This document shows, piece after piece, positions 23,644 to 51,430 of a stretch of 64,000 nucleotides of DNA (position 1 is its first letter; each line of letters opens with the position of its first letter). Location of the stretch: the sequence record OZ335963.1, one strand, 5' to 3'. Source of the stretch: a phage. Both the position numbers and the translations under genes were made by a program. The notes below the pieces were generated by a model. The model was not told the origin of the DNA. It ran no database searches and saw nothing but the letters and a program-made list of their open reading frames with translations.

Positions 23644-24561
23644 TTATTTTGCCCAGGGAGCCCAGGGCGGAGGGTCAAGATGGTATGAAGCTAGTTCTTC
23701 TAGAAGAGCATCTGGGGCTTCAATTCCATAATTCTGTAATACTATACGGTACTCTTTCTTATAATCACTAGAATCATTCTGGATATTCGTAGAATGATTA
23801 TCTTCTAACATCTCAAATAAATCCATATTAATTCCTAGCGATAAAAAACCAAAATAACGATTAGCTTCAATAATCTTTCTTTCTTCTTCAGACATTCTCC
23901 AGCGTAGTCCAACATCAAAATGAGCCCAGACCATCTTAACAAATGCATTTATATCTTTAATATCTTCAATAATGAATGATTTACTTTTAGAAGGTTGACT
24001 CGCTAATTTAACTTTATCGTCTTCAAACAGGTCAAAAAGACCATATTCATGATTATCTTCTAACATCTCAAATAAATCCATATTAATTCCTAGCGATAAA
24101 AAACCAAAATAACGATTAGCTTCAATAATCTTTCTTTCTTCTTCAGACATTCTCCAGCGTAGTCCAACATCAAAATGAGCCCAGACCATCTTAACAAATG
24201 CATTTATATCTTTAATATCTTCAATAATGAATGATTTACTTTTAGAAGGTTGACTCGCTAATTTAACTTTATCGTCTTCAAACAGGTCAAAAAGACCATA
24301 TTCATGGGCTCTTTTATAGCCTTTAATAGTTAAAGCTTCAGAAGAAGAAAAAGGTGAATCAGTATTCTGCAAAATATCTTCAGTATGCTTTATAATTAGA
24401 ATAACATTTTCTGGATATTTTCTTTCTTTTATATCTTTAATTAAAAGATCCGGATTTTCTGCTAAAGGAATAATTAATGAGCACTTTTTATCAAGTGTAT
24501 TTACCGATTTACCTTCTTTGGACATAAATTCTATTGAATAATGTTTTGCTACTTCAATCAT
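23644..24561 (-). CDS. hypothetical protein, 305 aa, containing an exact internal 85-aa tandem duplication
   Basis: Continuous ORF; residues [18 protein letters not shown]...LFEMLEDNH occur twice back to back. Confidence 0.55.
23794..24306. repeat. perfect direct tandem duplication, 2 x 255 bp plus 3-bp junction microhomology
   Basis: 23794-24048 is identical to 24049-24303; ATG repeated at 24304-24306; in frame within the ORF. Confidence 0.9.
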
Positions 24562-25999: not shown

Positions 26000-26027
26000 A
26001 ATGAAAAAGGACTCCCGAAGGAGTCCT
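26000..26027 (-). terminator. rho-independent terminator downstream of soc
   Basis: aggactcc-uucg-ggagtcct hairpin followed by TTTTTCATTTT on minus strand. Confidence 0.6.
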
Positions 26028-26034
26028 TGAATTA

Positions 26035-26280
26035 TTAACCACCAGTTACTTTCCACAAATCTTCATTTGCAGTAATCCATTCAGTACGTTGATTTTCTTC
26101 ATATACTGTAGTATATGCTGCTTTTTCTGAAGGGAATATCTGATAATGAGCGCCAGAAATTTTGTGAACGTCAGAATAAAGAGGGAAAGCTACAGAAATT
26201 TCTTTTCCTTCAATTTTCTTATTTCCATCTAATTTCTGCTCAAATGTTTTAATATTAACATAACCGCGAGTACTAGCCAT
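26035..26280 (-). CDS. soc: small outer capsid protein Soc
   Basis: 81-aa ORF matching T4 Soc by recall (MASTRGYVNIKTFEQKLDGNKKIEGKEISVAFPLY...). Confidence 0.9.
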   Translation of the reverse strand: MASTRGYVNIKTFEQKLDGNKKIEGKEISVAFPLYSDVHKISGAHYQIFPSEKAAYTTVYEENQRTEWITANEDLWKVTGG

Positions 26281-26310
26281 GTAATTCTCCTTTTATTTAA
26301 ATTACATGAC

Positions 26311-26318
26311 TATTTATA
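26311..26318 (-). promoter_or_regulatory. late promoter TATAAATA upstream of soc
   Basis: Exact TATAAATA on minus strand ~30 nt upstream of soc ATG with AAGGAGA SD between. Confidence 0.55.
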
Positions 26319-26352
26319 ATAAATTCTCACAGCTTTTAAGCTGTCGTTTATA

Positions 26353-26871
26353 TTAATAACCTCGGTCTTGACGAGCGAAGTTTTCGGCATTTTTTAGATA
26401 ATAAAGTTTAAAGATTTCTTCAGCCGTAAGACCGAGACCTTGGAACATGTTCAGAACGAAATGAAGAATATCAATCATTTCGAATTTAATTTCCAACTGG
26501 TCTTGCGGAGACAAATCAGTAATTAGAGTTTCACGGCGTTCACCGTGTTGAGCTTTCCAAGGCTTCCATACAGCGGATGCATCTTTTTCACCATTGCTCA
26601 TACCACCAAGAGAAGTCAGAAGTTCGCGGAATTCATCATCAATATAATCTTTCTGATTACGCAACCAATCAACAACTTCGCCTGCGGTAGCCAAATCATC
26701 AGGATGACGGTTATATTCAGGTTTATCTTTAGCTAAACGAACCTGCAGAGATTTCTGCATATCAAGCATAACCTGCAGCGGGTCTTTTTCATCACCGAGA
26801 ATATCCCAGTATTCATTTTGAGCTTTATCAGCGCCTTCAATCAGTTGACTACATTCGTTGAAATGTGGCAT
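26353..26871 (-). CDS. 56: dCTP pyrophosphatase gp56 (MazG-like)
   Basis: 172-aa ORF at the gene 56 position; size and N-terminus as T4 gp56 by recall. Confidence 0.85.
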   Translation of the reverse strand: MPHFNECSQLIEGADKAQNEYWDILGDEKDPLQVMLDMQKSLQVRLAKDKPEYNRHPDDLATAGEVVDWLRNQKDYIDDEFRELLTSLGGMSNGEKDASAVWKPWKAQHGERRETLITDLSPQDQLEIKFEMIDILHFVLNMFQGLGLTAEEIFKLYYLKNAENFARQDRGY

Positions 26872-26872
26872 G

Positions 26873-27523
26873 TTATTTTTCCTTTCTTATGAAGTTTTCT
26901 ATCATATGTCTATAGCAGATATTAGGATAACCTGCCTTGACAGCTATTTTATTAAATTTTGTGCGCTTAGGTCTATTATTATAAACCCATAATTCATAAA
27001 GCGCATCATAACTATTCCATATTTCTCCTCGCCTAGGATTTGGTAAACCATATCGAGGCGAATTTTTACCGCTAAATCTTCCTTTTCGGGCTTTACTCAT
27101 ATTAGCCTTGGCTTCATCGGATATAATTTTACCTTTATGAGCTAGACGCATTTTGGCTTTAGTTTCTTCTGGAGTCTTTTTGCCTTTAATCCATGACGGC
27201 TTGCCATATCTAGGATTATTTTCACCCGAGAAAAGAACAGAGTTTTGGATTTTAAGGGTTTCTATTAATCTACTTGTTAATTTAACACCTTTATTATATC
27301 GCATTAAATTTACAGCATAATGCAATCCTCTCACATCTGGATATATTTTAGTTAATAATCTATGAGCTATAAAATGCTCACGCGCAGTTAACTCAACAAG
27401 ATTGTTTTTGCCATCTGCTCCTCCCATACATCTAGGAATTATATGATGGCGTTCTTTATATCCGCCAAGATGCCGGCATTTAGCTTTTGTAATTAAAGCC
27501 GAGTAAATTTTTTGGTAATTCAC
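26873..27523 (-). CDS. HNH homing endonuclease
   Basis: 216-aa ORF with HNH core (RHHIIPRCMGGADGKNNLVELTAREHFIAHR); GTG start with AAAGGA SD; stop 1 nt from gene 56 ATG. Confidence 0.75.
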   Translation of the reverse strand: MNYQKIYSALITKAKCRHLGGYKERHHIIPRCMGGADGKNNLVELTAREHFIAHRLLTKIYPDVRGLHYAVNLMRYNKGVKLTSRLIETLKIQNSVLFSGENNPRYGKPSWIKGKKTPEETKAKMRLAHKGKIISDEAKANMSKARKGRFSGKNSPRYGLPNPRRGEIWNSYDALYELWVYNNRPKRTKFNKIAVKAGYPNICYRHMIENFIRKEK

Positions 27524-27593
27524 ATATATCCTTTCAATTCATGGGTTAGTAGATTAATTATACAATAAATATATAAAGCAATAAGGAGGATAT

Positions 27594-27794
27594 ATGGTAC
27601 AAAAATTAATGGCACTTGTAGATGCCATAAAAGGTAATAAAAGACGTATAGCTTTTACTATTTCTGCTATGGTAGGAATTTTACTTTGGAATTTTGTTTT
27701 ATCGCCAGTTGCTATTGCTCATGGTGTTAGTATTCCAGTAATTACTCTCGATACATTCGTAGATTTAGCATTTGCTTTAGTTGGGTTAATTTAA
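27594..27794 (+). CDS. small hydrophobic protein, 66 aa, antisense to the early genes
   Basis: ATG preceded by AAGGAGG SD; fills the gap between HNH gene and gene 61; predicted TM segment. Confidence 0.4.
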   Translation: MVQKLMALVDAIKGNKRRIAFTISAMVGILLWNFVLSPVAIAHGVSIPVITLDTFVDLAFALVGLI

Positions 27795-28819
27795 ATCTTA
27801 GCATATTTAGATAGCCGCATTTTGGCCATCAACCCTTGGGCAATATTATTTTTCATATATTCCATAATTTGTTCAGGGGTTGCACCTTCCTTTCTAATCA
27901 TATCATTAACATCTTTTGATTTCCAGGGAGATTTGTCCCAAAACATAACCCTTTCTCCTGCATCAACCAATTTAGTCATTCGTTTAATAGTATCAGGGTG
28001 ACGAGGTTCATTATCTAAAACCCATACACGTCTATCTTTAAATGGAACAATTTCTAGGTCTAATTGACCACCCGTAATAGCTATACCATTTTCAATAAAA
28101 AGTGAATCTATAGGTCCTTCTAGAACATATACATCACCATCTTTGACCCGTTCAACGCCATAGATTTTTGTTGCCTCAGGATAAGCTTTGATGGTGATAT
28201 ATTTTTGGGGAGCATCTTTCTTTAATGCACGTCCTTGAAAAGACTCAGCTTTTCCGTTAGCATTATAAATTGGAATAACAAGACGAGGCTCAGGTATTTC
28301 CTTTTTATATGTTCCTGGCGCTATACTATTAACTAATTTAGGCCATTCGGTTGTAAACCAAAGATATTTCCATTTATCCTTTGGAATACAACGGGCTTTT
28401 ACATATTTTATAATTGGATGGTCTTCCGCCAGTTTATCTAATCTAATGCATGACGGAAGAGATTTAATTATTTTTTTCTCAGGTTGTTTAGGAAGTTCTT
28501 TAGGTTTTTCTACTGGACGACTTTTACCTTTTTCTTTTCTTATTTCAAAGATATACTCACGATATAAATCGGGTTCAAACTCCTTTAAATATATTCTGAT
28601 TGGTGCATGATAGTTACAGTTATAACAATGAATATTTCCTTCATTATTATCGCCATAATACCATCCACGAGCTTTATTTTGGTCGGTTTTTGAATCTCCA
28701 CAAACAGGGCATCTAAACCGCAATTTAAAAGTTGAACTATTATTTACTTGTGCGAATTTAGGTAAATGAGCCAATGCACGGTATGCAAACTCATTATCAA
28801 TCCAAGGTATTGATGACAT
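27791..28819 (-). CDS. 61: DNA primase gp61
   Basis: 342-aa ORF matching T4 gp61 by recall; zinc-binding CPVCGDS...CYNC motif. Confidence 0.9.
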   Translation of the reverse strand: MSSIPWIDNEFAYRALAHLPKFAQVNNSSTFKLRFRCPVCGDSKTDQNKARGWYYGDNNEGNIHCYNCNYHAPIRIYLKEFEPDLYREYIFEIRKEKGKSRPVEKPKELPKQPEKKIIKSLPSCIRLDKLAEDHPIIKYVKARCIPKDKWKYLWFTTEWPKLVNSIAPGTYKKEIPEPRLVIPIYNANGKAESFQGRALKKDAPQKYITIKAYPEATKIYGVERVKDGDVYVLEGPIDSLFIENGIAITGGQLDLEIVPFKDRRVWVLDNEPRHPDTIKRMTKLVDAGERVMFWDKSPWKSKDVNDMIRKEGATPEQIMEYMKNNIAQGLMAKMRLSKYAKI

Positions 28820-28821
28820 TT

Positions 28822-28986
28822 TTACTCTTCTTTTTCTTTAGATTCCTCTTTTTTCTTTTTAGGAATCTGTTCAGGACCTTTATTTACTACAGCGCCTGAC
28901 GTTGTTCCAGTGGAGATATTTTCAGGATTACCACCTGAGTCTCCAGCTACCATATCTTCTTTAATAAATTCTTTATATGTTTTCAT
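28822..28986 (-). CDS. hypothetical protein, 54 aa
   Basis: Small Lys/Glu-rich ORF adjacent to gene 61 start. Confidence 0.4.
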   Translation of the reverse strand: MKTYKEFIKEDMVAGDSGGNPENISTGTTSGAVVNKGPEQIPKKKKEESKEKEE

Positions 28987-28987
28987 A

Positions 28988-29614
28988 TTAACCTCTATTC
29001 ATAAAAGCATTAAAAATTTGGTCATCAATAGAAACATTTACTTTAGACTGTTTTTCTGATGGTAATTCATATCCACATATTACAATTTTGTGATCAATAT
29101 CAAAATACACAGAAGCAATATGATTAATGATGTTTTCAGTAAAGTCTAAATCAACATCAATATCTTTTTGACCACAGCCCAAAGGATAAATAATGCGAGT
29201 AATTCGATTATCTTTAACAAAGATTCCACCGACATACTCTGTGCTGCGTTTAAAATCTACACGCCGACGAAATGAAAAATATTCAGGCTCTTTATGAGCT
29301 CTGCTCATAGGACACAACGAGTAACTAGAATAAGAGATGTCAAATCCTACGCCTTCAATATGAGCCAAAGTATCATGATTAAACCAATTATAATCGTACG
29401 CCAAATCCATTAGATTATAATATGTAAAAGGCACTGGATTAACATCATTAGTCACAAGCACGTAATTAGCAATTGCTATAATTTCATTGTTTTTAACGAA
29501 TACAAACCGTGATTGATGGGAATGACCTGGACCCGCGTTTTCACGATTAATGATATAACACTGGGCACCTTTATATTTGTATGTATCTTTGCACTTGTGC
29601 ATTTGATAGAGCAT
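28988..29614 (-). CDS. hypothetical protein, 208 aa
   Basis: ORF in the 61.x cluster. Confidence 0.5.
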   Translation of the reverse strand: MLYQMHKCKDTYKYKGAQCYIINRENAGPGHSHQSRFVFVKNNEIIAIANYVLVTNDVNPVPFTYYNLMDLAYDYNWFNHDTLAHIEGVGFDISYSSYSLCPMSRAHKEPEYFSFRRRVDFKRSTEYVGGIFVKDNRITRIIYPLGCGQKDIDVDLDFTENIINHIASVYFDIDHKIVICGYELPSEKQSKVNVSIDDQIFNAFMNRG

Positions 29615-50605: not shown

Positions 50606-50929
50606 TTAATCTTCTATGATATCTCTATCATATCCAAGTGAAATGAGAGTTTCTTTGAAGTGTTTAATGTTCTTTTGTCTAGAATCATTAATGAAAATGA
50701 CTGGATAACGAATGTTAAGAGATGTGAATCCAGCGCGTTTAGCAAGAGATACGATTAAAGGACGGTCGTATTCAATCTTACCATTATTAGTGAGGACTTT
50801 ATAAAATGTATAAGGAGCATTGAGCTCCTTTAAAAGTTTTGTAACAGTATAACATCCTGGACAACGTCCTACTTCTTCAGGGATGCCATAAATTTCAATC
50901 TTGTTCTTTAAGTTCGAGTTTTGTTCCAC
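50606..50929 (-). CDS. glutaredoxin-like protein (NrdH/Grx family), CPGC active site
   Basis: KIEIYGIPEEVGRCPGCYTVTKLL thioredoxin-fold N-terminus; start uncertain (GTG with AAGGA SD chosen); beside nrdG/nrdD. Confidence 0.5.
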   Translation of the reverse strand: MEQNSNLKNKIEIYGIPEEVGRCPGCYTVTKLLKELNAPYTFYKVLTNNGKIEYDRPLIVSLAKRAGFTSLNIRYPVIFINDSRQKNIKHFKETLISLGYDRDIIED

Positions 50930-51212
50930 GAGAAATAATTCCTTGGTAAGCCCAATACGGTGGGTTAACAGAATCATCACCAGAATTTTCTTCAGGAAAA
51001 TAAACCTGGATAACAAATCCGGATGCATCAAAGGTAAAATAAACCGTAGGTAATTCACCTAACAATTCGGCACGATTATTAATTTCTTCGAGTTCTCTTT
51101 CACGTCCGGCCCAAAAACTAGGATTTAGACTACATTCATAGAAATAATAGTCATTACCGAACATATCAAAACCTTTCCAACTCTCTACCACATACCGCTC
51201 AAAACTAATCAT
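50895..51212 (-). CDS. hypothetical protein, 105 aa
   Basis: ORF. Confidence 0.45.
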   Translation of the reverse strand: MISFERYVVESWKGFDMFGNDYYFYECSLNPSFWAGRERELEEINNRAELLGELPTVYFTFDASGFVIQVYFPEENSGDDSVNPPYWAYQGIISRGTKLELKEQD

Positions 51213-51214
51213 AA

Positions 51215-51430
51215 TTAAGCCTTTTTATCAAGAACAGAATTCAGTTTATTAGTAATTTTGTCCAAACGTTCATTGAATTCGCTGGAGGATAAACCCTTTT
51301 CAGGAGAAATTAAACTAATCAAGAAAAATACAACAGTAAAAGGAATAAGAAAAATAGCTCCAACTGCCATAAACAAAAAGAATGTTACGGTTGTAAGAAA
51401 ATCAGCTAAACCTTTACGAAATTTATACAT
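51215..51430 (-). CDS. small membrane protein, 71 aa
   Basis: TM segment (VTFFLFMAVGAIFLIPFTVVFFLISLI). Confidence 0.45.
   Translation of the reverse strand: MYKFRKGLADFLTTVTFFLFMAVGAIFLIPFTVVFFLISLISPEKGLSSSEFNERLDKITNKLNSVLDKKA

Follow-up and report, generated by a model that had tools for sequence, protein, structure and literature searches.

A probable HNH homing endonuclease cassette directly upstream of gene 56 in a Tequatrovirus, and its presence or absence among related phages

The window analyzed here is a stretch of 64,000 nucleotides (nt) of phage DNA (sequence record OZ335963.1), in which a minus-strand open reading frame (ORF) of 216 codons directly precedes gene 56, encoding a dCTPase/dUTPase. 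On the basis of sequence comparisons, we consider it highly probable that this ORF is the gene of a free-standing homing endonuclease of the Mob type with an HNH nuclease domain (the HNH gene), carried as a cassette. The window belongs to a Tequatrovirus with no identical record in the phage collection searched. The closest record for its first 25 kilobases (kb) was EcNP1 (96.9% identity) and that for positions 26000–29000 was Killian (97.3%), a complete genome with the same HNH-only arrangement, which shares about 94–98% identity with the window across the greater part of the 64-kb alignment.

The ORF list and the underlying sequence agree in placing the HNH gene at 26873–27523. Its start codon is a GTG (27523–27521), the first start codon past the upstream in-frame stop; the ATG adjoining this GTG was rejected as an alternative start, because it is in the wrong frame and is directly followed by TGA. 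The stop codon TAA (26875–26873) is separated from the ATG of gene 56 (26871–26869) by the single base 26872, and the initial annotation, which described a GTG-initiated ORF of 216 amino acids (aa) ending 1 nt before gene 56, was therefore exact. The two features concerned are as follows:

26873–27523, minus strand: HNH cassette of 651 base pairs (bp), present or absent in different phages, an exact indel with respect to EC121 and T4 in a five-way alignment.
26353–26871, minus strand: gene 56 (dCTPase/dUTPase; Pfam dUTPase_2), directly downstream of the HNH gene and its presumed target gene.

The assignment to the HNH endonucleases, initially made from the sequence letters, was upheld by several searches. 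Residues 1–210 matched PHROG 655, annotated as 'homing endonuclease' (E value 3.7e-59), and the Pfam NUMOD3 domain was found in three stretches with a score over the curated cut-off (E 7.4e-7). A large protein database yielded 3061 homologues, nearly all with NUMOD3, and in an alignment of 44 family members the residues E24, H26, H27, P30, G35, N41, E49, H50 and H54 were invariant. A search of the PDB with the single sequence gave weak HNH matches only (E >0.1). With the profile of the 44 sequences, the NUMOD3 region matched the DNA-binding domain of I-TevI (1I3J, E 6.9e-4), and residues 22–55 matched the HNH motifs of McrA (6GHC, E 1.4e-3), of a group II intron maturase (6ME0, E 2.7e-3) and of Cas8f-HNH. 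The AlphaFold model is confident over residues 1–100 and contains strands at 24–27 and 42–45 followed by a helix at 47–60, with a predicted local distance difference test (pLDDT) score >90; these are the two short strands and the helix expected of an HNH core. The protein can thus be divided into three parts:

27362–27454, minus strand: predicted H-N-H catalytic motif, residues 24–54 (HHIIPRCMGGADGKNNLVELTAREHFIAH), defined by the invariant residues and the profile matches.
27029–27226, minus strand: NUMOD3 repeat region, approximately residues 100–165, a presumed DNA-binding module, from the Pfam and 1I3J profile matches.
26876–27028, minus strand: C-terminal helical region, residues 166–216, with helices at 167–215 in the model, predicted with modest confidence.

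The closest T4 paralogues were MobE (44–46% identity across some 80% of the protein length) and MobD (34%). The ORF was intact in every orthologue examined, and the ratio of nonsynonymous to synonymous substitutions (dN/dS) was 0.06–0.26, cross-genus pairs included, which corresponds to purifying selection. The Mob genes of T4 have been described as an HNH domain joined to a distinct C-terminal region and mostly as promoter-less cassettes driven by upstream promoters; target nicking has been reported for MobA and MobE (PMC2988022). The fusion of the HNH motif to C-terminal modules and the promoter-less organization of the cassette make the window ORF fit this description.

MobE is the nearest known system. 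Both proteins combine an N-terminal HNH domain with NUMOD-type C-terminal modules, and the window gene, like MobE, is a sporadic, promoter-less cassette beside an essential nucleotide-metabolism gene, as reported for MobE in T-even phages (PMC2988022). However, MobE sits between nrdA and nrdB, whereas the window gene is upstream of gene 56 and presumably has a different target; the C-terminal third of the window protein could not be aligned to MobE, and mobE overlaps the nrdA stop codon, whereas the window gene has its own Shine–Dalgarno sequence and GTG. SegF occupies the same hotspot, also as a presence/absence cassette abutting gene 56 that would likewise exploit this gene, but it belongs to the unrelated GIY-YIG nuclease family and is located 3' rather than 5' of gene 56. 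The modular combination of a nuclease with an extended DNA-binding tail is shared with I-TevI and I-HmuI, and it is the I-TevI domain that NUMOD3 matched; these two enzymes are, however, intron-encoded, and the catalytic domain of I-TevI is GIY-YIG, not HNH.

The HNH gene is not a universally conserved core gene at this site, as it is missing from T4, T2, T6, EC121 and most Tequatroviruses. About 510 Tequatrovirus-like records matched the 3-kb interval at at least 90% identity, and about 32 of them carry the HNH gene; a junction between the HNH gene and orf66, a 66-aa ORF bordering the interval, was found in 29 records and a junction between the HNH gene and dam in three. The T4 record shows the order soc-segF-56-[oriA]-dam-61, in agreement with the initial annotation, which placed segF near gene 56 and dam between 56 and 61. 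In T2, two small ORFs separate soc from 56, and 56 is followed by dam, an additional 181-aa ORF and 61. T6 likewise has two small ORFs between soc and 56, but dam and the HNH gene are both absent between 56 and 61, and the 56-61 spacer is of the dam-less type found in the window. Global MAFFT alignments of the window with T4 and T6 misaligned within large indels, and only bins outside the indels were used.

The alignment of the 56-61 interval with T4, T2 and T6 revealed a clean 651-bp HNH indel and a separate dam indel, which appeared in the five-way alignment as two distinct adjacent indels. All four combinations were found: neither gene (EC121 and T6), the HNH gene only (the window and Killian), both genes (ELT1 and IME537) and dam only (T4 and T2). 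The two indels are therefore independent, since phages with both genes exist, and the window can be described as a T6-type backbone with one added cassette. An incompatibility between the HNH gene and dam was considered and rejected: dam is carried by 3 of the 32 HNH-positive records and by about 180 of the approximately 481 HNH-less ones (Fisher p ~9e-4, the denominators being approximate and the records not independent and in part duplicates). As ELT1 and IME537 carry both genes, we attribute this skew to linkage with the T6-type backbone rather than to an incompatibility of function.

The cassette is inserted between the middle promoter and Shine–Dalgarno sequence of gene 56 and the start of gene 56, with a copy of GAAAGGA on either side. 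On the upstream side, two features were delimited:

27557–27580, minus strand: putative MotA-type middle promoter, consisting of TGCTTTA (27580–27574), 11 nt and TATAAT (27562–27557), read by eye.
27524–27535, minus strand: predicted translation initiation region of the HNH gene, GAAAGGA (27535–27529), TATAT and then the GTG; this is the second copy of the gene-56 Shine–Dalgarno core.

The consensus of MotA-type promoters is well established in T4. The same promoter sequence is found upstream of gene 56 in T6 and EC121 and directly precedes this gene in HNH-less phages, and the fPS-2 record has a 'predicted middle promoter' annotated at the homologous position. In the HNH-less phages the promoter is followed by ...GAATTGAAAGGAAAAATA and then by the gene 56 ATG, and in the window by GAATTGAAAGGATATAT and then by the HNH GTG. 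At the other end, the last HNH codons AGA AAG GAA AAA TAA (R-K-E-K-stop) are followed by a C and the gene 56 ATG, such that the Shine–Dalgarno sequence of gene 56, GAAAGGA at 26886–26880, is inside the tail of the HNH ORF. This arrangement is common to the orthologues from a Klebsiella phage, from phage VR5 and from loci L061 and L063. The junctions therefore suggest that the cassette uses the copy of the gene-56 Shine–Dalgarno sequence and rebuilds one for gene 56 in its own 3' end. No separate promoter stood out on the HNH strand in a sigma-70 scan, which is blind to MotA-type promoters, and no internal terminator was found within the HNH gene on its own strand. In the mobE gene of Aeh1 the ribosome-binding site is hidden by an RNA hairpin; over the ribosome-binding sites of the HNH gene and gene 56, no hairpin was better than those of shuffled sequences (z 0.37 and 0.39). 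The insertion displaces the middle promoter by 651 bp from gene 56. According to the T4 annotation, oriA lies 22 bp inside gene 56 and has the gene-56 transcript as primer, and the displacement might alter the use of this origin.

The comparison with other genera provided evidence of mobility. The HNH gene is directly upstream of gene 56 in the Klebsiella Jiaodavirus 15882-6-1 and in the Dhakavirus VR5, and sister phages without it exist in both genera. Between the window and 15882-6-1, amino acid identity was 93% for the HNH protein, 61% for gp61, 79% for gp56 and 49% for Soc, and nucleotide identity rose from about 45–75% to mostly 90–100% at position ~27540 and dropped back at ~26855. These steps imply that the transferred unit was essentially the ORF with about 15–30 flanking bases. 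The HNH protein of VR5 is 79% identical to that of the window, and relatives found on T4-like contigs from metagenomes (80% and 55% identity) are also encoded directly upstream of a gene-56 homologue. Identity was uneven within the gene: in the Klebsiella allele, a central/distal NUMOD3 patch (27001–27200) was only 72–82% identical to the window at the nucleotide level, and the VR5 allele was 94–98% identical in its 3' half and 42–76% in the HNH half (27201–27523). The HNH gene itself is thus a mosaic, which indicates recombination between alleles. One 155-kb contig (IMGVR_UViG_2974741249, loci L006/L043) was set aside as a probably error-ridden sequence; in addition to an N-terminally truncated HNH gene and a fragmented or duplicated gp56, it has gp61 in fragments, and another, distant HNH-like ORF follows gene 56 on its downstream side.

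The window gp56 is 99% identical to those of Killian, ELT1 and EC121, 90–91% identical to the Dhakavirus proteins and 71–74% identical to those of T4, T2 and T6, and the flanking gp61 and Soc are 96–98% identical to their T4 counterparts. Gene 56 is thus an island of divergence, which suggests that its alleles have been exchanged between genera at this endonuclease hotspot.

The sequences at the insertion point also differ between phages with and without the cassette. The HNH-positive Tequatrovirus and Jiaodavirus genomes examined share the junction AAAATAAC followed by ATG CCA CAT TTC AAC, in which codons 2–4 of gene 56 (26868–26860 in the window) have the HNH-linked variant CCA CAT TTC. In the HNH-less phages T4, T2, T6 and EC121 the junction is AAAA(A/C)TA followed by ATG GC(A/T) (T/C)AC TTT AA(C/T). 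The empty site of the T6/EC121 type reads ATGGCWYACTTT, and other HNH-less phages, such as Kha5h and W143, have a 'scar' type in which AAC is followed by ATGCCACATTTC. We removed the cassette in silico by recombination between the two GAAAGGA copies, and the predicted product was matched exactly (65/65 positions) in 21 HNH-less records, which represent about 18 different phages, Kha5h, Sf23 and W143 among them. It was also found in near-exact form in five dam-positive records and in the IMG/VR locus L013, and the Jiaodavirus loci L028 and L029 have full or partial excision-type junctions. Whether they arose by excision or represent the allele into which the cassette was first inserted, these alleles connect many empty genomes with the HNH lineage and fit the usual cycle of gain and loss of homing endonuclease genes.

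From these observations, a mechanism can be proposed. The HNH gene would be transcribed together with gene 56 from the gene-56 middle promoter and translated from the copy of the gene-56 Shine–Dalgarno sequence at a weak GTG, and its tail would supply the replacement Shine–Dalgarno sequence, so that the essential dCTPase is still made. In a mixed infection, if the enzyme behaves as other members of its family, it would nick or cut the HNH-less allele in or near the highly conserved start of gene 56, and recombinational repair from the HNH-positive genome would copy the cassette and a few flanking bases into the recipient. A target at or near the insertion site is suggested by the short conserved flanks and by a gene-56 start that is extremely conserved from one genus to another; such a conserved target would explain the spread among Tequatro-, Jiaoda- and Dhakaviruses. 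Recombination between the two GAAAGGA copies could later remove the cassette, and the missing dam and segF would be independent presence/absence polymorphisms of a single hotspot. We regard the chances as about even that the window allele is currently active and targets the start region of gene 56.

Several points weigh against this interpretation. The match to the Pfam HNH family PF01844 was sub-threshold (14.7 bits, E 0.036; the cut-off is 21.4 bits), the NCBIfam scan of the ORF gave no match, and Foldseek found no significant similarity between the model and PDB structures, the top matches being HNH domains at E 0.5. A D38G substitution private to the window copy lies inside the GGADDKNN stretch, in an alignment column that is not invariant in the family. 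The HNH-linked flank variant is not present in the VR5 and L063 lineages, which makes it weak as a signature of recognition-site immunity, and the flank changes, including Ala2Pro, would be weak evidence for immunity to cleavage. Finally, the 'scar' alleles may represent the ancestral state into which the cassette was first inserted, instead of products of excision.

Among the alternatives, the one that survives best, albeit an unlikely one, is that the nuclease has been co-opted for the benefit of the phage, by excluding the gene-56 region of relatives, by shuffling gene-56 alleles or in counter-defence. It would account for the divergence island, with a Dhakavirus-like gene 56 between T4-like gp61 and Soc, and for the presence of this gene-56 allele in all the HNH-positive Tequatroviruses examined. 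There are also precedents: SegF causes marker exclusion at the same gene (PMC2988022), and a beneficial role has been reported for SegB (PMC13096335). However, the same gene-56 allele is found in many HNH-less phages (EC121 and loci L010–L012), and the sporadic distribution and apparent losses fit a selfish element. Co-option is, in any case, compatible with the homing endonuclease interpretation and does not exclude it.

Slightly less probable again is that the HNH gene is a decaying, inactive relic hitch-hiking with gene 56. Degeneration after fixation is predicted by the life cycle of homing endonucleases, and the D38G change beside the catalytic motif, the weak GTG start and the many genomes that appear to have lost the gene are all in keeping with it. 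Nevertheless, the orthologues are all intact with invariant H-N-H residues, the low dN/dS values extend even to comparisons between genera, and the near-identity of the Jiaodavirus cassette against diverged flanks indicates a comparatively recent transfer. The idea that the ORF is a conserved core gene or an annotation artefact, for example a spurious ORF opposite a real gene, has nothing in its favour other than the tight packing against gene 56 and can be dismissed as having a negligible probability, given its absence from T4, T2, T6, EC121 and most relatives, which refutes it, together with the strong family matches, the 3061 homologues and the purifying selection. A free-standing Mob-type HNH homing endonuclease cassette is therefore the interpretation that we retain.

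With regard to dam and segF, the initial annotation had reported no methyltransferase ORF of the DPPY type in the interval and no ORF between soc and 56, and both statements held. In tblastn searches against the whole window, the best E value was 0.76 for T4 Dam and 5.7 for T4 SegF, and an amino-methyltransferase motif pair was found in none of the window's open frames of 100 aa or more. The sole frame of this size with a (D/N/S)PP(Y/F/W/H) motif (50898–51224, minus strand, 109 aa) has NPPY with no FxGxG and is too short for a methyltransferase; its NPPY is most likely due to chance. Nor was a dam homologue found elsewhere: the complete Killian genome contained none at E <= 1, and its two small ORFs labelled as methyltransferases were rejected as Dam, as they correspond to Pfam DUF7247 and DUF7202. 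The window and the complete genome of this relative thus support the lack of a phage-encoded Dam, although a phage genome without dam gives no direct indication as to N6-methyladenine in virion DNA, which depends also on the host enzyme.

In the window, the dam segment is replaced by a short linker:

27543–27567 (no strand assigned): 25-bp linker GGGTTAGTAGATTAATTATACAATA in place of the ~0.9-kb dam segment of T4, T2 and ELT1 in the five-way alignment; Killian and EC121 also have the linker, and T6 has one of the same type.

The initial annotation had proposed a different mobile-element occupancy of a known hotspot. This stands for the HNH gene, the 651-bp indel being real, but the dam-less interval is not unusual. 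T4-type dam was found in 184 records, about one third of the Tequatrovirus-like records matching the interval, and the dam-less interval is the T6 state, the commoner one among them (about two thirds). No usable statement that T6 lacks Dam was found in the literature, and the T6 state was read from the T6 locus. In IMG/VR, a search with the HNH protein gave three loci and gp56 was used as bait instead, yielding 45 gene-56 loci. Three of the 45 had dam within 2.5 kb upstream of gene 56, all three with a gp61 98–99% identical to that of the window, and none of the loci with gp61 at 57–74% identity had dam within this distance. The restriction of dam to loci with a window-like gp61 suggests that dam is the inserted state and the dam-less interval probably the ancestral one. 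The 181-aa ORF of T2 (L059 2996–3541, minus strand), between dam and the 66-aa ORF, had sub-threshold Pfam matches to DpnII (E 0.0096), BanI and HSDR_N. DpnII is a GATC restriction endonuclease, and this hints that the dam cassette could be derived from a restriction-modification module.

The remainder of the locus follows the T4 gene order. On the minus strand, the neighbours are soc (26035–26280; Pfam Soc, E 4e-53), 56, the HNH gene, the primase gene 61 (27791–28819), 61.1, 61.2, sp, 61.4, dmd, 41, 40 and uvsX, and the product of gene 56 is 99% identical to annotated dCTP pyrophosphatases in close relatives. The other features bordering the variable positions are:

26281–26352, minus strand: soc-56 intergenic spacer of 72 bp, empty, with the late-promoter motif TATAAATA at 26318–26311.
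The soc-56 position in other phages: occupied by segF (T4), by two small ORFs (T2 and T6) or by a different HNH gene (fPS-2).
27594–27794, plus strand: 66-aa hydrophobic ORF (orf66), PHROG 2024 of unknown function (E 8.8e-30), bordering the variable interval and outside the mobile cassette.

The ORF list contains no minus-strand ORF in the 72-bp spacer. We take the two small ORFs of T2 and T6 to be soc.1 and soc.2. The different HNH gene of fPS-2 and its relatives, encoding 278 aa (L064 608–1444), is in the segF position and overlaps the 3' end of gene 56, so that gene 56 is bordered there by two endonuclease genes. The 66-aa ORF has a strong AGGAGG Shine–Dalgarno sequence and is convergent with gene 61, with a 4-nt overlap; it is kept at 89–95% amino acid identity in T4, T2, T6, EC121 and Killian and is also present in ELT1, but despite its conservation in T4 it is absent from the feature table of NC_000866.4. 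Outside this region, an ORF of the T4_MRH family (23644–24561, minus strand, 305 aa) contains a perfect 255-bp tandem duplication at 23794–24306 (2.0 copies, 100% match), which corresponds to 85 codons in frame, and the Killian homologue has 160 aa. The duplication is either a very recent event or an assembly artefact.

The same gene has been annotated at the same position in Escherichia phages Killian, WL-3, IME340, G50 and G4498 and in Yersinia phages fPS-90 and fPS-2, as well as in Klebsiella Jiaodaviruses and VR5 ('mobE'), with the labels 'homing endonuclease' and 'HNH endonuclease'; the annotated copies are 93–99.5% identical to the window protein in Tequatro- and Jiaodaviruses and 79% identical in VR5, and they differ from it only as alleles, for instance by the D38G change of the window. 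In Jiaodavirus Kpn5N, a homing endonuclease similar to MobE has been described upstream of the dCTPase gene (PMC9960720), and the window gene is not among the named, characterized T4 endonucleases listed in Table 1 of PMC2988022. We found no biochemical study of this enzyme in the literature. An HNH gene upstream of gene 56 is thus already catalogued in about 30 Tequatrovirus records and is ordinary, with nothing unexpected for the field, and the missing dam is a common state rather than a peculiarity of this phage.

The comparisons confirm the soc-56-dam-61 stretch as a mobile-element hotspot of T-even phages with at least four independently varying slots: the position upstream of 56 is empty or occupied by the HNH gene, the dam cassette is present or absent, an extra ORF is found beside dam in T2, and the position downstream of 56 is empty or occupied by segF, another HNH gene or the two small ORFs of T2 and T6. 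The presumed conserved target at the dCTPase start and the abundant alleles of 'post-excision' type would make this locus a convenient natural system for studying the gain and loss of homing endonucleases. A broader interpretation, which we put forward tentatively and consider somewhat doubtful, is that the HNH gene and the Dhakavirus-like gene-56 allele constitute a module homing between genera of Tevenvirinae, and that the HNH-less genomes with AAAATAAC joined to ATGCCACATTTC are cleavage-immune scars. If this were true, the module and the scar states would record the full cycle of gain, fixation and loss of a free-standing homing endonuclease in natural populations.

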